The notes beneath the pieces are model-generated. The model saw only the letters and a list, made by a program, of their open reading frames with translations. It did no database searches and was not told the origin of the DNA. DNA of 64,000 nt from Escherichia coli (GTDB lineage Bacteria; Pseudomonadota; Gammaproteobacteria; Enterobacterales; Enterobacteriaceae). The DNA is taken from assembly GCF_041248615.1 (NCBI RefSeq), contig NZ_CP158426.1; one strand, given 5' to 3'. The position numbers and the translations under genes are program-made. Below are positions 13,378-62,554 of the stretch, piece by piece (position 1 is the first letter of the stretch; each line of letters opens with the position of its first letter).

Positions 13378-16300
13378 TTACTCCTGACGGCGCGGTTTAC
13401 CGGCAAACAAACGTTTCACCAGTACAAAAAACAGAGGAACAAAGAAAATAGCCAGCAACGTAGCGGTCAGCGTACCGCCAATAATGCCCGTACCAATGGC
13501 GATGCGGCTGTTCGCCCCTGCGCCGGTTGCTATCGCCAGCGGCATTACCCCCGCAATAAACGCCAGCGAGGTCATGATGATTGGGCGTAAACGAGTCTGC
13601 GCCGCGCGTAATGCCGCACGACTCAAGGAATAGCCCTCTGCAACCGCCGCTTCAGCAAATTCCACAATCAGAATGGCGTTTTTCGACGACAAGCCGATAG
13701 TGGTTAATAGCGCCACCTGGAAGTAAACATCGTTGTTTAAATCACGCATCCAGGCCGCCAGCGCCGCGCCAAGAAGCCCCAGAGGGATCACCAGAATGAC
13801 CGAGAACGGGACTGACCAGCTTTCGTACAGTGCTGCAAGGCAGAGGAAAACCACCAGAATAGAAACTGCATACAGACTTAATGCCTGACCGCTGGCCAGT
13901 TTCTCCTGCAATGACAAACCACTCCAGGCCCAGGTTGTTCCCGCAGGAAGACTGTTTGCCAGTTCCTCCATTTTTGTCATTGCATCGCCGGAACTAAAGC
14001 CAGTCGCATTTTCCCCCTGAATTTCATAGGCTGCAGAACCGTTGTAGCGCACCAGTCTTTCCGGTCCATACAGCCAGCGGGTGGTCGCAAAAGCAGAGAA
14101 TGGTGTCATGGCGTTATCGCTACCGCGCACAAACCATTTACCTAAGTCTGACGGCGCGGAACGAAATTCACTGTCGCCCTGAATGTAGACTTTTTTCACA
14201 CGACCACGGTCAATAAAGTCATTCACATAAGTACCGCCCCACGCACTGGACAGGGTGTCGGTGACATCATTCAAACTCAACCCTAATGACACCGCTTTAT
14301 TACTATCAATATCTACCTGCAATTGCGGCATTTGTGGCAAATCATTAGCACGCACAGAATGTAACTCCGGACTTTGATTCGCTTTTTCTATCAACTGATT
14401 ACGCATTTGCAGTAGTGTTTCGCGATCGGTTCCACCGTTAGCTAACAATTCAAACGTAAAACCATTGCTTTGCCCCAGCCCATCAACGGCTGGCGGCGTC
14501 ATCGCAAATACCGTGGCATCACGAATTGTGCCCAGCTCTTTGGTTGCCCGTAGGGCGATAGCCTGGGCGGTGTTTTCTGCCCCTTTACGTTGAGACCAGT
14601 TTTTCAACGAAACAAACGCCATCCCGGTGTTCTGTCCGCTGCCGCTAAAACTGAAACCATCAACGGTAAAAATAACATCGGTATTTGCTTTCTCATTAAT
14701 CAGGAACCAGTCAACAATCTGGCGATTCACTTCTGCTGTACGGGCAGCGGTCGCCCCGGCCGGCAGCGTGTACTGCACCATGATTTCGCCCTGGTCTTCA
14801 GTGGGTAAGAAACTGCCCGGCAGTTTCCACATCATCAGGGCCATTCCACCACCCAGTACGACATAAAGCCCCATCGTTCGAGCAGCACGGCGCAGGACAT
14901 AAATTACGCCTCGCTGATATTTATCTTCAGTACGGCGGTAAAAGCGGTTAAATGCGCCGAAAAAGCCTTTTTTATGTGGCGGAACATGCTGGAGGACGGA
15001 ACCGCACAGGGCGGGAGTCAAGGTCAATGCCACTACCACGGAAAGCAGCATTGCGGAGATAATGGTTATCGAAAACTGACGATAAATTACCCCCGTAGAT
15101 CCCCCAAAGAAGGCCATAGGCAGGAATACGGCTGATAACACCAGCGCAATGGCAACCAGTGCGCCAGAAATCTCGCCCATTGATTTTTCCGTGGCTTCAC
15201 GCGCGGGCAACCCTTCGTCACGCATAATGCGTTCGACGTTCTCCACCACCACAATGGCATCGTCCACCAGCAAGCCGATCGCCAGGACCATTGCAAACAA
15301 CGTCAGGGTATTAATCGAATAGCCAAACAACGCAAGAACGCCGAATGTGCCCAGCAAAACGACGGGGACAGCTAACGCCGGAATCAGTGTGGCACGCAGG
15401 TTTTGCAGGAATAAATACATCACGCAAACCACCAATACGATGGCTTCAAACAGCGTCTGAATTACGTCCTCTACAGAGATTTTAATAAATTCAGTGCTGT
15501 CTTTCGGGTATGCGATGTCGTATCCCTGCGGCATGTTCCGCTGGAATTCGGCAATCTTATCCTTGACCAGCGTCGCCGTATTCAGCGCATTCGCACCGGG
15601 CGAAAGCATTACAGCAACCCCGGCAGACGGGTGACCGTTAAGTTTGCCGATAGCGGTATAATCTTCACTGCCCATCTCAACGCGAGCCACATCTTTTATA
15701 CGAACAACTGCGCCGTCTGACTGGCTTTTCACGATAATATTTTTGAACTGATCCACCGTCTGCAAGCGAGACTGCGCACGTACCGTTGCGGTCAGTTGCT
15801 GAGTATTCGGTGAAGGCAATGCCCCTATTTTCCCGGCAGTAACCTGCACGTTTTGCGCTTCAATAGCACTTTGCACGTCTGAAGGCATTAGCGAGTAAGA
15901 CGCCAGTTTGGCCGGGTCAAGCCAGATGCGCATAGCGTATTCCGCGCCAAAGACTTGCAGACTCCCCACACCTTCAACACGCGCCAGCGGGTCCTGAACG
16001 TTACTAACCAACCAGTCGGCGATATCCGAACTGGAGGCTTTATCAGTGGTGTCATACACGGCAGCAATCAGCAAAAAGTTGCTTTGTGATTTCTCCACCG
16101 TAACACCCGTTTGCTGCACTTCGCTGGGTAGGCGCGACTCCGCCTGCTGAATTTTATTCTGCACCTGAACCTGTGCAGTATCTGGATCGGTACCTTGTTC
16201 AAAGGTCACATTAATACTGACCGAACCATCAGAGCTACTGGTTGAGCTGAAATAGAGTAAATTATCAAGCCCAGTGAGTTGTTGCTCGATAACCTGAGTC

Positions 16301-16485
16301 ACGCTGTTCTCCAGCGTTTCGGCAGAAGCACCAGTATAAGTGGCTGAAATTTTAATGGTCGGCGGTGCAACGTCAGGATATTGCGCGACGGGTAATGTGC
16401 GAATAGCCAGAATCCCCGCCAACATAATCAAAATGGCGATAACCCAGGCAAAGACCGGGCGGCGAACAAAAAAGCGCGAAAACAT
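13378..16485 (-). CDS. RND multidrug efflux pump, inner-membrane permease (AcrB/MexB-like HAE1)
   Basis: 1035-aa ORF; N-terminus MFSRFFVRRPVFAWVIAILIMLAG is the hallmark AcrB-family start; 12 TM helices and two large periplasmic loops. Confidence 0.9.
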   Translation of the reverse strand: MFSRFFVRRPVFAWVIAILIMLAGILAIRTLPVAQYPDVAPPTIKISATYTGASAETLENSVTQVIEQQLTGLDNLLYFSSTSSSDGSVSINVTFEQGTDPDTAQVQVQNKIQQAESRLPSEVQQTGVTVEKSQSNFLLIAAVYDTTDKASSSDIADWLVSNVQDPLARVEGVGSLQVFGAEYAMRIWLDPAKLASYSLMPSDVQSAIEAQNVQVTAGKIGALPSPNTQQLTATVRAQSRLQTVDQFKNIIVKSQSDGAVVRIKDVARVEMGSEDYTAIGKLNGHPSAGVAVMLSPGANALNTATLVKDKIAEFQRNMPQGYDIAYPKDSTEFIKISVEDVIQTLFEAIVLVVCVMYLFLQNLRATLIPALAVPVVLLGTFGVLALFGYSINTLTLFAMVLAIGLLVDDAIVVVENVERIMRDEGLPAREATEKSMGEISGALVAIALVLSAVFLPMAFFGGSTGVIYRQFSITIISAMLLSVVVALTLTPALCGSVLQHVPPHKKGFFGAFNRFYRRTEDKYQRGVIYVLRRAARTMGLYVVLGGGMALMMWKLPGSFLPTEDQGEIMVQYTLPAGATAARTAEVNRQIVDWFLINEKANTDVIFTVDGFSFSGSGQNTGMAFVSLKNWSQRKGAENTAQAIALRATKELGTIRDATVFAMTPPAVDGLGQSNGFTFELLANGGTDRETLLQMRNQLIEKANQSPELHSVRANDLPQMPQLQVDIDSNKAVSLGLSLNDVTDTLSSAWGGTYVNDFIDRGRVKKVYIQGDSEFRSAPSDLGKWFVRGSDNAMTPFSAFATTRWLYGPERLVRYNGSAAYEIQGENATGFSSGDAMTKMEELANSLPAGTTWAWSGLSLQEKLASGQALSLYAVSILVVFLCLAALYESWSVPFSVILVIPLGLLGAALAAWMRDLNNDVYFQVALLTTIGLSSKNAILIVEFAEAAVAEGYSLSRAALRAAQTRLRPIIMTSLAFIAGVMPLAIATGAGANSRIAIGTGIIGGTLTATLLAIFFVPLFFVLVKRLFAGKPRRQE

Positions 16486-17606
16486 CAGGCGTTGCCTCCA
16501 TTAGCCTGAACTTCAACAGCCTTGACGGTCTGCCCTGAAGTGACTTTGGCAGAACCTTCAACAATCAGTCGGTCGCCGTTGTGCAGGCCGTTCAGCACCA
16601 GCCATTTATCACCATACGTTTCTCCCGTTTCGAGCGTTCGCTGCTCTACTTTATTGTCTTTATTCACCACCAGCGCAGTTGCATTGCCTTTAGCATCGCG
16701 CGTGACGCCCTGTTGCGGCGCGAGAATAGCGTCTTCCATCACGCCTTCATCGACACGAGCGCGAACAAACATTCCCGGTAATAACTGCTGTTGTGGATTG
16801 GGGAAAATCGCCCGTAATGTCACCGAACCGGTAGACTCATCTACAGCGACTTCGGTGAGTTCCAGACGCCCTTTTTCGCTGTAGGTTGTGCCATCTTCCA
16901 GAATAAGTGAGACGCTCATGGTGTCACTGTTGGTCGCCAGTGACTGTTTACGCAGACGTAATAAATCGACACTGGAGCGAGTGAGGTCGACATACATTGT
17001 ATCCAGACCACGAATAGTCGTTAACGCTGTATCTTGCGACGCGGTCACCAGTGCGCCAGGGGTTACCGACGAAATGCCAATGCGCCCTGAAATCGGTGCG
17101 GTTACCGTGGTCCAGTCAAGATTAATGCGCGCAGTTTCCAGCGCGGCTTTTTTCGCCTCTACACTGGCTTTATCTTGTGCACAGGTAGACTGAGCATCAT
17201 CAGCATCCTGTTGTGAAACACCGTTCTCTTTCACCAGTCGGGCATAACGCTGCGCTTTCTGGCAATCGGCTTTTACCAGTGCCTGTGCTTGTTGTAATGC
17301 TGCCCGAGCTTCATTCCATGCAGCCTGATAACTGGCCGCATCAATCTGGTAGAGAGGCTGTCCAGCCTTGACCAGATCACCTTCCTTAAATAAGCGTTTC
17401 TGGATAATTCCCCCAACCTGCGGACGTACTTCAGCACTGAGCGCAGCACTGGTGCGTCCGGTTAATTCACTGACTACCGAAACAGGTTGAGATTTGAGCG
17501 TAACAACGCCGACTTCTGTTTCTGACGGGGATGAATTGTTACTTTGCGTATTATCACAACCCGATAAGAGCAGCATTGCCACTACAGATGTTGCTATATA
17601 CTTCAT
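16485..17606 (-). CDS. RND efflux membrane fusion protein (AcrA/MexA-like periplasmic adaptor)
   Basis: ORF with lipoprotein signal MKYIATSVVAMLLLSGC; start chosen at the ATG preceded by GGAG (ORF track extends to 17639); 1-nt overlap with the RND gene. Confidence 0.8.
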   Translation of the reverse strand: MKYIATSVVAMLLLSGCDNTQSNNSSPSETEVGVVTLKSQPVSVVSELTGRTSAALSAEVRPQVGGIIQKRLFKEGDLVKAGQPLYQIDAASYQAAWNEARAALQQAQALVKADCQKAQRYARLVKENGVSQQDADDAQSTCAQDKASVEAKKAALETARINLDWTTVTAPISGRIGISSVTPGALVTASQDTALTTIRGLDTMYVDLTRSSVDLLRLRKQSLATNSDTMSVSLILEDGTTYSEKGRLELTEVAVDESTGSVTLRAIFPNPQQQLLPGMFVRARVDEGVMEDAILAPQQGVTRDAKGNATALVVNKDNKVEQRTLETGETYGDKWLVLNGLHNGDRLIVEGSAKVTSGQTVKAVEVQANGGNA

Positions 17607-17657
17607 TATTTTCTCCAGGGTGAGAAATACCCTCCTCATTGAAATTAATGAGGATAT

Positions 17658-17736
17658 GTCAGGGATATTCAGTTATAACGAACCCGCATCGCGAAATGAA
17701 TTTCGCAATGAAATAAGGGGGATTAATATCCCCCGC
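17658..17736. promoter_or_regulatory. palindrome-rich region between the tetR-like gene and the efflux operon (candidate operator plus terminator hairpin)
   Basis: inverted repeats cctcatt-N6-aatgagg and gcgaaat-ga-atttcgc, followed by the hairpin gggggattaatatccccc. Confidence 0.4.
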
Positions 17737-17754
17737 TATTGGTTAATTCTGTTC

Positions 17755-18321
17755 TTATTTATTTATCAACATACTAACAATATCCTGATATATTTCCTGC
17801 AGATGTTGTGGATCGCTTTTTTGCGGTGTTAAACGACGATAAACCGTACCTTCCATCATGGTAGCAAACACTTCAACGCAGCAACGAATGTGCTCGTCGC
17901 TAAGATGGGGATGCATTCTTTTCATATGTGCACAACCGTTAGCGAACATTCTGGCGTCAGCTTCTTCAAGCATTGCCATAACCCGCGGGTTGCGTGTGGC
18001 TTCTGCAGCCACTTCCAGCATCAGCGCGTCGTCGTCCTCATTTAAGGATTTACGCAAGGCAAGGACTTCCGGGAAGTGATCGGTACGCGCGTCAATGTCC
18101 ATTTGGGCAATACGAAAGTCGATGATACGGCGAACCATCTCTTCAATAATGGCGTCTTTGTTGGCGAAGTAACGATATATCTGACCCACGCTAAGCTGAG
18201 CTTCGCTGGCAATTTGCGACATACTGGCGGCATGAAACCCGCAGCGACGAAAACACCGACGGGCGGCGTTAATGATTTCATCCTGACGCTGTTTGTGGCG
18301 TATCTCCAGCTTGCTGGTCAT
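17755..18321 (-). CDS. TetR/AcrR-family transcriptional regulator
   Basis: TetR-type HTH (AARRCFRRCGFHAASMSQIASEAQLSVGQIYRYFANKD) near the N-terminus when started at MTSKLEIRH (AGGAGA RBS); ORF track extends to 18420. Confidence 0.75.
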   Translation of the reverse strand: MTSKLEIRHKQRQDEIINAARRCFRRCGFHAASMSQIASEAQLSVGQIYRYFANKDAIIEEMVRRIIDFRIAQMDIDARTDHFPEVLALRKSLNEDDDALMLEVAAEATRNPRVMAMLEEADARMFANGCAHMKRMHPHLSDEHIRCCVEVFATMMEGTVYRRLTPQKSDPQHLQEIYQDIVSMLINK

Positions 18322-18346
18322 TTCTGTCTCCTGGCCTATCACTTGG

Positions 18347-18364
18347 TGAGAATGATCGTTCTCA
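18347..18364. promoter_or_regulatory. 18-bp near-perfect palindrome upstream of the tetR-like start (candidate autoregulatory operator)
   Basis: TGAGAATGATCGTTCTCA, symmetric with 2 central mismatches, 26 bp upstream of the proposed start codon. Confidence 0.4.
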
Positions 18365-18798
18365 TTTTTGCTGATTATACGTTTCTCCAAAGTAATGGAA
18401 AGTATTTTTATCTTATTCATGGTGCATATTCTGATAATGAAGAGATTGTGGAGATTATGTGAAGATAGTTGACAATATTAAGTTGGGGTCAATTCATCAG
18501 AAAGGCTGCTACTTGTTGTCGCCAGTTCTGTTTTCATCATCAAACTTATCGGAGCTAATACGAATAGTTTCAGAGTCAGATTCTATAAGATATTCCCCCA
18601 ACCTACCCCTTGCAGGCGTCAAGAGTAGATAACGCAAAATGCTCTGTACCGCAGCTTCTCTCCGGTACAGAAAGCGCAACTATAGCCACCCACAGCCAGG
18701 TTGATTATAATAACCGTTTATCTGTTCGTACTGTTTACTAAAACGACGAATCGCCTGATTTTCAGGCACAACAAGCATCAACAATAAGGATTAAAGCT

Positions 18799-19587
18799 AT
18801 GGGTTTTCTTTCCGGTAAGCGCATTCTGGTAACCGGTGTTGCCAGCAAACTGTCCATCGCCTACGGTATCGCTCAGGCGATGCACCGCGAAGGAGCTGAA
18901 CTGGCATTCACCTACCAGAACGACAAACTGAAAGGCCGCGTAGAAGAATTTGCAGCTCAATTGGGTTCTGACATCGTTCTGCAGTGCGATGTTGCCGAAG
19001 ATGCCAGCATCGACACCATGTTCGCTGAACTGGCGAAAGTTTGGCCGAAATTTGACGGTTTCGTACACTCTATTGGTTTTGCACCTGGCGATCAGCTGGA
19101 TGGTGACTATGTTAACGCCGTTACCCGTGAAGGCTTCAAAATTGCTCACGACATCAGCTCCTACAGCTTCGTTGCAATGGCAAAAGCTTGCCGCTCCATG
19201 CTGAATCCGGGTTCTGCCCTGCTGACCCTTTCCTACCTTGGCGCTGAGCGCGCTATCCCGAACTACAACGTTATGGGTCTGGCAAAAGCGTCTCTGGAAG
19301 CAAACGTGCGCTATATGGCGAACGCGATGGGTCCGGAAGGTGTGCGTGTTAACGCCATCTCTGCGGGTCCGATCCGTACTCTGGCGGCTTCCGGTATCAA
19401 AGACTTCCGCAAAATGCTGGCTCATTGCGAAGCCGTTACCCCGATTCGCCGTACCGTTACCATTGAAGATGTGGGTAACTCTGCGGCATTCCTGTGCTCC
19501 GATCTCTCTGCCGGTATCTCCGGTGAAGTGGTCCACGTTGACGGCGGTTTCAGCATCGCTGCAATGAACGAACTCGAACTGAAATAA
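18799..19587 (+). CDS. fabI: enoyl-ACP reductase (NADH) FabI
   Basis: 262-aa ORF matching FabI, including the [16 protein letters not shown] start. Confidence 0.95.
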
Positions 19588-25488: not shown

Positions 25489-26238
25489 ATGAATTCCCGA
25501 CAACAAACTATTCTACAGATGGTCATTGACCAGGGTCAGGTTAGCGTAACCGATCTGGCAAAAGCCACTGGAGTTTCTGAAGTTACCATTCGCCAGGATC
25601 TCAACACCCTCGAAAAACTGAGTTACCTCCGCCGTGCACATGGCTTTGCAGTATCGCTTGATAGTGATGACGTCGAAACTCGTATGATGAGCAACTATAC
25701 GCTGAAGCGTGAACTCGCCGAGTTTGCCGCGTCACTGGTTCAACCGGGCGAAACCATCTTTATCGAAAATGGCAGCAGCAATGCCCTGCTCGCCCGGACT
25801 CTGGGCGAGCAGAAGAAAAATGTCACTATCATCACGGTCAGCAGCTACATCGCGCATTTGCTGAAAGACGCGCCTTGTGAAGTTATTTTGCTCGGTGGCG
25901 TGTACCAGAAAAAAAGCGAAAGTATGGTTGGCCCGTTGACACGCCAGTGCATCCAACAGGTGCATTTCAGCAAAGCATTTATTGGTATTGATGGCTGGCA
26001 ACCTGAAACTGGGTTTACCGGTCGCGATATGATGCGTACCGATGTGGTCAATGCCGTGCTGGAAAAAGAGTGCGAAGCGATAGTCCTGACTGACAGCTCG
26101 AAATTTGGTGCTGTACATTCATACTCCATCGGCCCCGTTGAGCGATTCAATCGCGTGATTACCGATTCGAAAATACGCGCCAGCGATCTGATGCATCTTG
26201 AGCACAGTAAACTCACCGTTCACGTCGTTGACATTTAA
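25489..26238 (+). CDS. yciT: DeoR-family transcriptional regulator YciT (DeoT)
   Basis: 249-aa ORF with N-terminal DeoR HTH and C-terminal sugar-phosphate-binding-like domain. Confidence 0.85.
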
Positions 26239-26506
26239 CCATTTCCCTTCTCTACGGATGATTTGCTGTTTTGCAAATCATCCGCTCTAAGATGATTCCT
26301 GGTTGATAATTAAGACTATTTACCTGTTATTAACACTCTCAAGATATAAAATTATTATCAGCGATATAACAGGAAGTCATTATCACCTGCGTGATATAAC
26401 CCTGCGCGCGAGCGGATTTCACGGAATAATTTCACCAGGCTTATTCTTAGCTATTATAGTTATAGTGAGCTTACTTCCGTGAATCATAAATTCAGGAGAG
26501 AGTATT

Positions 26507-26725: not shown

Positions 26726-26820
26726 TCGTAAATAAATGTCGATTATCGACTCGCAATTATAATACGCTTGATTCTGTTCAGTACGAAATAACTGAATAAT
26801 ACACACAGTAAAATATTCGA

Positions 26821-26847
26821 AAGCCACGGATATATCCGTGGCTTTTT
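26821..26847. terminator. bidirectional terminator between osmB and yciH
   Basis: hairpin agccacgga-tatat-ccgtggct flanked by A/T runs. Confidence 0.6.
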
Positions 26848-26850
26848 ATG

Positions 26851-27180
26851 TTAGCCGCCTGCGAGTTTTACCTTCATCCCTTTCGCTTCAAGCAGTGATT
26901 TTAATAAATCACGCTTATCGCCCTGGATTTCAATAATTCCATCTTTAACTGCTCCGCCGCAGCCGCATTTTTTCTTCAGTTCCGCTGCCAGTTTCGTCAG
27001 TTCGGCATCATCGAGATCGACACCGGTAATCAGGCAAACGCCCTTACCTTTACGTCCACTGGTCTGACGCTGAATACGCACCACACCGTCGCCTTTAGGG
27101 CGTACAGGGGCCGCTTTTGGCTCATCAATACGTCCGGTTTCCGTTGAGTAGACCAGACGGCTGTTGGAATCACTCATCAT
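26851..27180 (-). CDS. yciH: SUI1/eIF1-like translation initiation factor YciH
   Basis: 109-aa ORF matching YciH; 4-nt overlap with pyrF. Confidence 0.85.
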
Positions 27181-40227: not shown

Positions 40228-40905
40228 AAATGCGCCTGTAAGGCTCTGTTACCAGCCGCGCCCTAACAGGCGCATACGATCTGACATTTGCATTCAACTT
40301 CGTTACTTACGGCCCGTAAACGGGCTGCCCGGATAGGGAATCGATAACTGCTCCCCCATTTTATCCTCTTCAAGCTGGTGCTTTATGTAGTCCTGTATCT
40401 TCGCCGTGTTCTTACCCACCGTATCGACATAGTACCCTCGGCACCAGAACTCCCTGTTTCTGTATTTGAATTTCAAATCCCCAAACTGCTCGTAAAGCAT
40501 CAGACTGCTTTTCCCTTTCAGATATCCCATAAAGCCGGATACGCTCATTTTGGGTGGGATTTCCACAAGCATATGGATATGATCTGCGCAGCACTCTGCT
40601 TCCAGAATCCGTACGCTTTTCCACTCACACAGCTTTCTCAAAATACTGCCTATCGCCCTACGCTTCTCTCCGTAAAACGCCAGTCTTCGGTATTTCGGCG
40701 CAAAAACTATGTGATATTTACAGTTCCAGCGGGTGTGCGCTAAGCTCTTTTCGTCCCCCATTGGGACCCCCTTTTGATTTCTTGTTTGACACTTGCAGTT
40801 GCCAGACCGCAAGGTGTTTTAACAAATCAAAAGGGGTTTTAATAACTGGCTCAAAGCTGAAAGCTTTCCGGAACCCCCAGCCTAGCTGGGGGTTTTCTGT
40901 GCACA
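40228..40905 (-). mobile_element. IS200-type insertion sequence (IS200/IS605 family); boundaries approximate
   Basis: contains a Y1 transposase gene matching IS200 TnpA, plus the characteristic 5' structures: an end-proximal hairpin (40873..40893) and a long stem-loop (about 40767..40836) that occludes the tnpA RBS; no TSD, as expected for this family. Confidence 0.6.
40303..40761 (-). CDS. tnpA: IS200 transposase TnpA (HUH/Y1 family)
   Basis: 152-aa ORF from MGDEKSLAHTRWNCKYHIVFAPKYRR with the HxH motif (ADHIHML) and catalytic Tyr region; track ORF has a 17-aa extension. Confidence 0.9.
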   Translation of the reverse strand: MGDEKSLAHTRWNCKYHIVFAPKYRRLAFYGEKRRAIGSILRKLCEWKSVRILEAECCADHIHMLVEIPPKMSVSGFMGYLKGKSSLMLYEQFGDLKFKYRNREFWCRGYYVDTVGKNTAKIQDYIKHQLEEDKMGEQLSIPYPGSPFTGRK

Positions 40906-40910
40906 ACAAA

Positions 40911-40932
40911 ACGCGAGGTCTTAGCCTCGCGT
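40911..40932 (-). terminator. sohB intrinsic terminator
   Basis: hairpin acgcgaggc-taag-cctcgcgt followed on the minus strand by tttgttgtg. Confidence 0.55.
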
Positions 40933-40939
40933 TTGTCTT

Positions 40940-41989
40940 TTACATCAATGGTTTTTGCCCCCGCTGCCACCAGCGTAACAACAATCGATCGGCGCTCTCT
41001 GCCGCGCTGCCGGTGAATCGGTCAATGAGTCGTTTACGCTGCATATAGCGTACATTGACCACTTCACGGCCTTCCATCAGGCTAAGAATAACTTCATCAC
41101 TGGTGTTGATTTCATCAACCAGGCCTTTCTCTACCGCCTGTTGTCCGTACCAGTGTTCACCCGTTGCCACCTGATCAATATTCAGAGACGGACGCATACG
41201 CTTCACAAAATCTTTAAATAACTGATGCGTTTCGTTCAGCTCTTCGCGGAATTTCTCCCGCCCTTCTTCGGTGTTTTCACCCAGCAAAGTCAGCGTGCGC
41301 TTATACTGCCCGGCGGTGTGCAGTTCGATATCAATATCTTTGCTTTTCAGGAAGCGGTTAAAGTTGGGCATTTGTGCCACCACGCCAATGGAACCCACAA
41401 TAGCAAACGGTGCGGAAACAATTTTGTCCGCCACACAGGCCATCATGTAACCGCCACTGGCAGCAACTTTGTCTACCGTAACAGTTAAAGGAATGTTTTT
41501 ATCACGCAGACGCTGCAGCTGCGAAGCCGCCAGCCCGTAACCATGCACCATGCCACCAGGGCTTTCCAGACGTAGCACAACCTGATCCTGCGGTTTGAAT
41601 GCTGCGAGTACCGCCGTTATCTCTTCACGTAGCGAGTTCACTTCATGGGCGTCCATGCTGCCTTTAAAATCCAGCACCCAGACGCGAGGTTTACTGTCAG
41701 TTGCCACCTCGCCCAGTTTGGCTTTCGCTTTTGCTGCTTTCGCTTCTTGCTTGTGCTTTTTCTTCTGCGCTTTGTGCCACTGTTTTTGCTGATGTGAGTC
41801 CATCAGCGCCGCGGCCAGTTCTTCTTTCATCTCCTTATACTGTTCGCTGAGATTGTTGACCCGTAACTCGCCACGCTGGCGTTTATTACGTTGAGCAACA
41901 TTGACAATAATGGCGGCAATCGCCGCAATCGCTAGCACAACGGTAACGATTTTCGCCAAAAACAAACCATATTCAGACAACAATTCCAC
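40940..41989 (-). CDS. sohB: inner-membrane peptidase SohB (S49 family)
   Basis: 349-aa ORF matching SohB. Confidence 0.9.
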   Translation of the reverse strand: MELLSEYGLFLAKIVTVVLAIAAIAAIIVNVAQRNKRQRGELRVNNLSEQYKEMKEELAAALMDSHQQKQWHKAQKKKHKQEAKAAKAKAKLGEVATDSKPRVWVLDFKGSMDAHEVNSLREEITAVLAAFKPQDQVVLRLESPGGMVHGYGLAASQLQRLRDKNIPLTVTVDKVAASGGYMMACVADKIVSAPFAIVGSIGVVAQMPNFNRFLKSKDIDIELHTAGQYKRTLTLLGENTEEGREKFREELNETHQLFKDFVKRMRPSLNIDQVATGEHWYGQQAVEKGLVDEINTSDEVILSLMEGREVVNVRYMQRKRLIDRFTGSAAESADRLLLRWWQRGQKPLM

Positions 41990-61957: not shown

Positions 61958-62254
61958 GTGTTGTATGTTATTTACGCTCAAGACAAAGCTGATAGCCTCG
62001 AAAAACGCCTTTCCGTTCGTCCGGCACATTTAGCACGTTTACAGTTACTGCATGATGAAGGTCGATTGTTGACCGCCGGTCCAATGCCAGCAGTAGACAG
62101 TAACGATCCAGGGGCTGCGGGATTTACTGGCTCAACCGTTATTGCTGAATTTGAATCGCTGGAAGCAGCTCAGGCCTGGGCCGATGCTGACCCGTACGTA
62201 GCGGCAGGAGTCTATGAATACGTTTCAGTGAAACCATTTAAGAAAGTGTTCTGA
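61958..62254 (+). CDS. yciI: YciI-like protein (Dabb-type fold)
   Basis: ORF matches YciI when started at the GTG preceding [16 protein letters not shown] (98 aa); AAGGAG RBS upstream. Confidence 0.75.
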
Positions 62255-62276
62255 ATAGAGATTCAATATTTAAGGG

Positions 62277-62303
62277 CACGGTTTTTGCAACCGTGTTCTT
62301 GTT
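62277..62303 (+). terminator. yciI terminator
   Basis: cacggtt-tttgc-aaccgtg followed by ttcttgttt. Confidence 0.55.
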
Positions 62304-62554
62304 TGGCCTTTCCTTATAGGTCGGTCAGTGCATTCACCCCTACAAGCAGATAATAACTTTATCTGTATTTCTTTATATGATGTGAGCATATTCAGGAAAA
62401 ATGCCCTTTCCTGACGCAGAGTTGCTCACTCAAAACCTTTGATTACTGCGGATAAAGTCATCTACTATTGTTTAACACATTCACGCGCTGCATGTATGTT
62501 CAGAAAATGTGCACGCTCAGATAATTAAACAAAATTGTGGTTACAGAGGTATCA

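Follow-up and report, generated by a model that had tools for sequence, protein, structure and literature searches.

Inverted repeats between eefR and eefA of Escherichia coli as a probable leaky terminator and conserved mRNA stem-loops rather than EefR operators

Comparable systems and the eefRABCD locus

Leaky intrinsic terminators occur inside operons as intercistronic attenuators that set the ratio of proximal to distal expression. In papBA, in malEFG with its REP hairpins, and in the puf operon, intercistronic stem-loops govern the segmental stability or processing of the mRNA. Short perfect palindromes beside RND pump operons are found as operators under adjacent TetR-type repressors, as for CmeR at cmeABC and for AcrR and EnvR. 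The spacer between eefR and eefA of E. coli can be compared with each of these. It shares with the attenuators a GC-rich stem-loop and U-rich tail after the first cistron, together with co-transcription of the genes downstream, but its first gene is the operon's own repressor, and the U-tract of E. coli is interrupted. Like the papBA, malEFG, and puf stem-loops, the eef hairpins flank an AU-rich linker between regulator and structural cistrons and are conserved in their pairing and not in their sequence; the second and third hairpins (H2 and H3), however, are single-copy and are not REP repeats. As at CmeR, AcrR, and EnvR sites, short perfect palindromes lie beside an RND pump operon under an adjacent TetR-type repressor. 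However, the EefR operator, TGAGAACGATCATTCTCA, is located upstream of eefR, the spacer palindromes are unrelated to it in sequence, and the spacer does not compete for EefR.

The operon itself, eefRABCD, is the subject of Shen et al. 2025 (PMC12482432) and of Pugh et al. 2026 (PMC12817139), and theirs is the same locus as ours. It has only recently been recognized as E. coli's seventh RND efflux system and is restricted to infection-associated phylogroups of the species; the two studies disagree on whether it provides drug resistance (PMC12482432, PMC12817139). Hairpins and a terminator in the spacer are mentioned in neither, and the word "terminator" does not occur in either text.

In the window (the whole 64-kb stretch of E. 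coli DNA that was analyzed), this accessory operon occupies the sapF–fabI interval and runs on the minus strand throughout. The gene eefR (17755..18321, minus strand) encodes a TetR-family repressor of 188 amino acids from the RefSeq start, as RefSeq annotates it in an identical E. coli locus and as NCBIfam TetR-family matches indicate. The window EefR is 99–100% identical to the EefR of Shen et al. (PMC12482432), and the spacer of their strain, ATCC 35218, is identical to the window spacer. Also on the minus strand are eefA, the membrane-fusion lipoprotein gene (16485–17606), and the RND permease gene (13378–16485). A 1.1-kb stretch was matched at 95–100% identity, on the chromosome, in 2043 of 5426 complete E. 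coli genomes; the matching loci are flanked by sapF and fabI and carry an outer-membrane factor gene and an MFS gene further along the operon.

RefSeq, the homologues, and the lipoprotein signal peptide MKYIATSVVAMLLLSGC agree on 17606 as the first position of eefA, and the tblastn alignments of all orthologues open at this Met. The Shine-Dalgarno sequence GGAG lies at 17613–17616 and the start codon at 17604–17606 (together 17604..17616, minus strand); the eefR–eefA spacer measures 148 nt (17607–17754) and is AT-rich (39% GC). The 115 bp given in the preliminary description falls short of this because an in-frame upstream ATG at 17639 was taken as the start. That ATG (17637–17639), 11 codons 5' of the annotated start, yields a 384-aa open reading frame in mechanical lists; it falls within the 3' arm of H3 and is not kept in other genera. 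In most genera the eefA Shine-Dalgarno sequence is weak and A-rich.

Inverted repeats and hairpins of the spacer

The preliminary description quoted three inverted repeats, and all three were found in the spacer, although the range it assigned to them, 17658–17736, covers two and leaves the cctcatt palindrome outside. As the genes are on the minus strand, the GC hairpin is transcribed first and the cctcatt palindrome last. In this order, gggggattaatatccccc is a 7+4+7 repeat at 17717–17734 (H1); gcgaaat-ga-atttcgc, at 17691–17706, extends with one mismatch to an 11+2+11 repeat at 17687–17710 (H2); and cctcatt-gaaatt-aatgagg forms an 8+6+8 repeat at 17633–17654 (H3). The repeats exceed chance: dinucleotide shuffling of the spacer yielded three perfect inverted repeats with a stem of at least 7 bp and a loop of 2–8 nt in just 3 of 5000 trials, and the spacer was the sole 148-nt tile of the window to hold three. 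The fold z-score of the spacer RNA was −3.6 for the sense strand and −2.6 for the antisense strand. Elsewhere in the 64-kb window, a search for a second GCGAAAT palindrome returned only matches with three mismatches, which is chance level. The other 148-nt tiles to hold two perfect repeats (stem of 7 bp or longer) lie at ~371–590, ~26197–26340, ~26789–26940, ~40849–41000, and ~62235–62456.

H1 has the anatomy of an intrinsic terminator (17707..17734, minus strand; repeat search and terminator scan). Its stem, GGGGGAU-AUUA-AUCCCCC at 17717–17734 (GGGGGAT-ATTA-ATCCCCC in DNA), has 7 bp, including five G-C pairs, around a 4-nt loop and is followed by TTATTTCATT, with the U-rich tail UUAUUUCAUU at 17707–17716. 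The terminator scan flagged it on the sense strand, where it begins 20 nt 3' of the eefR stop codon. H1 has the GC-rich stem-loop with an immediate U-rich tract on the transcribed strand, the place 3' of a stop codon, and the structural conservation in orthologues that mark an intrinsic terminator. The U-tract is interrupted in E. coli (UUAUUUCAUU) and poorer still in E. albertii (UGACUUCAUU); other genera have a different GC-rich stem and then a better U-run than E. coli, mostly CUUUUU(U). These U-tracts were compared by U counts after the core stem, which replaced an automated terminator scoring that was uninformative, the U-tract having been merged into extended A/U pairing.

The earlier proposal that this hairpin terminates the regulator transcript thus holds for its anatomy, the scan, and the orthologues, but not as a complete stop, as the eefR–eefA junction was amplified from cDNA (PMC12482432). 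In that study, RT-PCR gave products across all junctions, and eefR was co-transcribed with eefA, eefB, eefC, and eefD; knockout of eefR raised eefA 83-fold, and plasmid constructs with the Ptet promoter conferred 8- to 32-fold increases in MIC (PMC12482432). We mapped the inserts of the Ptet plasmids (PMC12482432) from 17919 down across the entire spacer, and transcription in these plasmids must therefore pass H1, unless an internal promoter exists. Because the junction is transcribed, the pump genes respond to loss of eefR, and the Ptet constructs starting at 17919 raise the MIC, we infer that H1 is a leaky, read-through terminator of eefR that ends transcription in part.

Downstream of H1, H2 (17687..17710, minus strand) was identified by repeat search, sense-strand folding, and covariation as the RNA stem-loop CAUUGCGAAA-UUCA-UUUCGCGAUG (in DNA, CATTGCGAAAT-TC-ATTTCGCGATG). 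The one mismatch is a wobble pair, U·G, confined to the sense strand, and 25 of 34 sequences have U·G at that pair. H3 (17633..17654, minus strand), found by repeat search, folding, and covariation, forms UCCUCAUU-AAUUUC-AAUGAGGA (in DNA, TCCTCATT-AATTTC-AATGAGGA) in the 5' leader of eefA. A further small helix, AGGGU/ACCCU, may form directly 5' of the Shine-Dalgarno sequence (17617..17633, minus strand), and we tentatively call it H4: in the minimum free energy (MFE) folds of most orthologues, the G-rich segment after H3 pairs with CCCUG/UCCU, in a register that varies. It falls between H3 and the start codon, where sequence conservation is highest within the spacer (…UUCACCCUGGA(G)AAAA…). 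Judging from position and conservation, H2, H3, and H4 most likely serve in mRNA processing or stability and in presentation of the ribosome-binding site.

Some candidate features were tried and rejected. A leader peptide at a recurrent AUG (GAUGCGG) would give open reading frames of 6–8 codons in some genera, while elsewhere the frame stays open or the AUG is missing; the AUG is buried in the H2 stem without a usable Shine-Dalgarno sequence, and frame and length vary. A long-range pairing between H2 and the Shine-Dalgarno region was dropped because the partner arm varies among genera. The H2 of Enterobacter (CCGGAGATGCGG) resembles the REP consensus, a likeness that we dismissed because the element is single-copy. 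An Rfam cmscan of 17300–18900 (E ≤ 1) gave no match in the spacer; the sole match, a weak one to Bcj14 inside the eefA coding sequence (17341–17513, minus strand; 27 bits against a gathering threshold of 59, E = 0.02) is almost certainly due to chance.

Conservation of pairing across genera

Alignment of 26 EefR homologues led to 80 loci fetched from reference genomes, and in about 37 of these eefR is followed by eefA. The genera with this arrangement are Escherichia, Raoultella, Enterobacter, Lelliottia, Leclercia, Pseudocitrobacter, Kluyvera, Cedecea, Phytobacter, and Dryocola, with one Kosakonia. Orthologous spacers were 129–155 nt long, and the same three hairpins appeared in nearly all individual MFE folds of 33 of them, though the sequences differed. 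The arms of H2, for example, are GCGAAA/UUUCGC in E. coli, UCUGGC/GCCAGA or UCCGGC/GCCGGA in Enterobacter, and UCCG/CGGA in Raoultella; those of H3 are CUCAUU/AAUGAG in E. coli, CUGUUAA/UUAACAG in Enterobacter, CUGCUA/UAGCAG in Raoultella, and CUCGC/GCGAG in Kluyvera. Compensatory or wobble changes in H2 and H3 also occur in E. albertii and further Escherichia, and the substitutions in H3 within Escherichia lead to G·U wobbles on the sense strand.

RNAalifold on a structure-blind MAFFT alignment recovered H2, with compensatory changes in six of nine pairs, but missed H1 and H3 because differences in loop length misaligned both. A covariance model was therefore built from 11 Enterobacter, Lelliottia, and Leclercia spacers, and all matches were realigned, giving an alignment of 34 spacers. 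Matches to the model were confined to eefR–eefA spacers in the 565 kb searched, with one in the 64-kb window. Across the 34 spacers, from about 12 genera, 91.8% of cells pair, compared with 46–56% when partners are slid. An alignment fitted to a model is biased towards the modeled structure, but three results argue for a real signal: the folds of single sequences, the controls with slid partners, and the recovery of H2 from the blind alignment. Changes on both sides were found in 22 of the 25 pairs, and none of the pairing measures was reached in any of 500 shuffles. By helix, both-sided changes affect four of six pairs in H1 (83% of cells pair), all 10 pairs in H2 (94%), and eight of nine pairs in H3 (95.6%). 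Among non-Watson-Crick cells on the sense strand, G·U outnumbered A·C by 84 to 17 (40:4 in H2 and 21:4 in H3). This asymmetry fits a sense-strand RNA and not a symmetric protein–DNA site. The three hairpins are thus conserved as pairing, with compensatory change, and not as sequence. Such a conserved RNA structure in the eefR–eefA spacer is new; its elements, a terminator and leader stem-loops, are of ordinary kinds, and covariation supports them well.

The arrangement varies among relatives. In K. aerogenes, H2 is absent and H1 is followed by A's and not U's. Klebsiella sp. BIGb0407 has an eefR–eefA spacer of 42 nt without hairpins (L040:3562-3603), and the spacer of Citrobacter sp. JGM124 (L055) is unrelated in sequence; the leader is therefore not universal. 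In Escherichia sp. MOD1-EC7003 (L003:3568-3839), a 124-bp insertion between the eefR stop codon and H1 holds …CACCCCAGTCACTTACTCTAGTAAGCTCCAGGGGATTCAC…, and H1 to H3 are intact downstream. The insertion presumably belongs with the ERIC/IRU repeats, which it resembles.

The EefR operator, alternative explanations, and a probable role in the mRNA

The experimentally defined EefR operator, TGAGAACGATCATTCTCA, has an exact match in the window at 18347..18364 (minus strand), supported by EMSA and point mutants (PMC12482432). PeefR, a promoter-like TTTCCA-16-TATAAT at 18374..18401 (minus strand) that matched at 10 of 12 positions in the promoter scan, has its −10 element just upstream of this operator. 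In the published work, EefR bound this 18-bp palindrome upstream of eefR, and single-base changes abolished the shift; a 316-bp upstream fragment drove gfp and was repressed by EefR; and a genome-wide motif search found no second EefR site (PMC12482432). Across our 80 loci the operator is conserved as sequence (TGAGAAYGATCRTTCTCA), exactly in 35 and with one mismatch in 27, and this conservation extends to genera in which EefR is only about 50% identical. The operator is kept even without a downstream eefA, in Kosakonia, Erwinia, Pantoea, and Serratia variants such as TGAGAATGAACGTTC[AG]CA, 66–117 nt before the start (L009-L081).

The same study used as "nonspecific" cold probe a fragment amplified with primers eefA-gel-F and eefA-gel-R, which did not compete for EefR, although the excess of competitor was low (1x and 2x according to the legend) and weak EefR binding is still compatible with the result (PMC12482432). 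These primers map to 17733–17752 and 17607–17627, respectively, and the probe thus spans H1, H2, and H3. A scan for the sigma-70 consensus found no promoter-like site on the sense strand between 17600 and 17920, and inspection by eye showed no −10/−35 pair at a conserved position in the spacer; TATAAC, which comes closest to a −10 element, lacks conservation already within Escherichia. Shen et al. suggest possible "native promoter elements" upstream of eefA (PMC12482432), but from these data an internal promoter in the spacer is unlikely. A promoter-like TCAACA-17-TATATT with an upstream TG, at 17766–17794 on the plus strand, lies inside the 3' end of eefR, reads antisense into that gene, and is probably a chance match.

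Besides the true operator, the only sequence in the window within one mismatch of TGAGAA-N6-TTCTCA is TGAGGAGGGTATTTCTCA (17621..17638, minus strand; motif search), which overlaps the 3' arm of H3 and lies 15–32 nt before the eefA ATG. The rough expectation for such matches by chance in 148 nt is ~3 × 10^-4. In UTI89-like strains (UTI89, NU14, UM146, and similar), which make up 17 of 2031 genomes, the match to TGAGAA…TTCTCA is perfect, the UTI89 (L084) allele being TGAGAAGGGTATTTCTCA; it arises by a G-to-A change that also breaks one base pair of H3. In other Escherichia the sequence has 3–4 mismatches, and in other genera 4–6. Its center, GGGTAT, is unlike the conserved YGATCR, and its half-sites are those of the published M1 mutant, in which a single-base change led to loss of binding (PMC12482432); it is also contained in the non-competing probe. 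On account of this poor conservation, odd center, M1-like half-sites, and lack of competition, we judge TGAGGAGGGTATTTCTCA to be coincidental and probably non-functional.

The preliminary description saw the two palindromes as placed like operators over the promoter of the efflux operon. In this model EefR would act on an internal eefABCD promoter, as CmeR does at cmeABC. Their location between regulator and pump genes, a dyad symmetry typical of TetR operators, and the one-mismatch copy at 17621–17638, perfect in 17 UTI89-like genomes, speak for it. Yet GCGAAAT-N2-ATTTCGC and CCTCATT-N6-AATGAGG both fail to resemble TGAGAA-N6-TTCTCA, neither overlaps a promoter of the regulated genes, and their half-sites, in contrast to those of the true operator, are not conserved, the paired bases differing among genera while pairing is kept. 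The operator maps instead to 18347–18364, with no second genomic site; the spacer probe did not compete; there is no promoter-like site on the sense strand, TATAAC being unconserved; and a change of the M1 type abolished binding. The published EMSA and RT-PCR (PMC12482432) essentially amount to non-binding of the regulator and a single transcript from upstream, so the operator assignment is not supported, and we consider it highly improbable. Binding by some other protein (a different transcription factor, H-NS, or a nucleoid protein of another kind) that acts on an internal promoter or stops elongation would fit the AT-rich spacer (39% GC), the speculation of Shen et al. on further regulators upstream of eefA (PMC12482432), and the reported silencing of K. 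aerogenes eefABC by H-NS, which the eef papers cite. It is at odds with pairing that is kept while bases change (GCGAAA/UUUCGC against UCUGGC/GCCAGA), a signature of RNA structure and not of protein–DNA contact, and with G·U exceeding A·C 5:1 and a U·G pair kept in H2, both of which break the dyad symmetry of the DNA in a strand-specific manner. A conserved promoter for such a protein to control was not found in the spacer either, and we regard this explanation as quite unlikely. Equally improbable as the operator model, if not more so, is that the repeats are chance or neutral palindromes, or a repeated element such as REP, BIME, or MITE, and play no part in the operon; the covariation already contradicts it. 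Short palindromes are common in AT-rich intergenic DNA, and MOD1-EC7003 has its ERIC-like insertion in this very spacer; but only 3 of 5000 shuffles matched the repeats, compensatory conservation spans about 12 genera, and the model matches nothing but eefR–eefA spacers in 565 kb. REP, BIME, and ERIC elements are present in many copies per genome, whereas this one is found in a single place in each of 2031 E. coli genomes.

If the repeats act in RNA, the spacer could also be a regulated switch, in which H1 or eefA translation answers a small molecule, an sRNA or RNA-binding protein, a stalled ribosome, or temperature, as a second layer of control independent of EefR. Such a switch would agree with a structure of ~135–150 nt that is conserved across genera with strong covariation and has no Rfam family, with the conserved primary sequence of its 3' part (…GG…UCGUUCACCCUGGAAAAA…), and with the reported need for sequence upstream of eefA for plasmid phenotypes (PMC12482432). 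It is nevertheless unlikely: inspection of folds and alignments found no conserved antiterminator pairing, a conserved leader ORF was not found either, each of the three hairpins is simple and stands by itself without a multi-helix junction, and some lineages lack the element or have it in reduced form. As H1 stands at the 5' end of the structured region, only the eefR coding sequence is transcribed early enough to switch it. A broader proposal, which we put forward tentatively and hold to be rather doubtful, is that the eefR–eefA spacer constitutes an undescribed, genus-spanning, cis-acting RNA leader, a terminator with three helices, that gates expression of the cryptic EefABC/EefD pumps after transcription initiation and independently of EefR. 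Gating of this kind could use, for example, regulated read-through, RNase processing, or an sRNA or protein on the conserved UUCACCCUGGAAAAA segment. Shen et al. found sequence upstream of eefA to be required for the phenotypes of multi-gene constructs (PMC12482432), a need that such gating, if true, would explain; Pugh et al. cloned eefABC at the NdeI site without the leader, in uninduced pET vectors (PMC12817139).

We think it probable that the repeats act as RNA hairpins, with H1 as a leaky terminator and H2 and H3 (and H4) as stem-loops of the eefA leader that shape the read-through mRNA. Direct support extends to the repeats, their compensatory pairing and sense-strand asymmetry, the binding of EefR elsewhere, and the co-transcription of eefR and eefA. 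In the mechanism that we propose, the 148-nt spacer would be transcribed within the eefRABCD mRNA from a single EefR-controlled promoter upstream of eefR. H1 would end a fraction of transcripts after eefR while the remainder continues, so that the repressor message would exceed the pump message and leaky pump expression would be damped under repression. After endonucleolytic processing, H2 and H3 may cap an eefR fragment at its 3' end and an eefABCD fragment at its 5' end, and they could also hold the weak, A-rich eefA ribosome-binding site free of upstream structure.

A repressor that acts only at PeefR bears on the design of expression constructs, with or without the leader, and helps in reading differences between eefR and eefA transcripts. 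Mutations that unlock the pump could also arise here, as a weaker H1 stem or an altered leader could raise pump expression with eefR untouched. The locus further corrects a tempting annotation, in that a palindrome beside a TetR gene is not necessarily its operator.

Finally, we note an arrangement in K. aerogenes that contrasts with the literature, where eefABC of this species is described without eefR. In GCA_029843285.1 (L082:3001-4837), a 202-aa EefR homologue (59% identical) is encoded directly upstream of eefA (76% identical), with an eefR–eefA spacer of 106 nt and an operator-like TGAGAACAATCACTCTCA preceding the EefR homologue.
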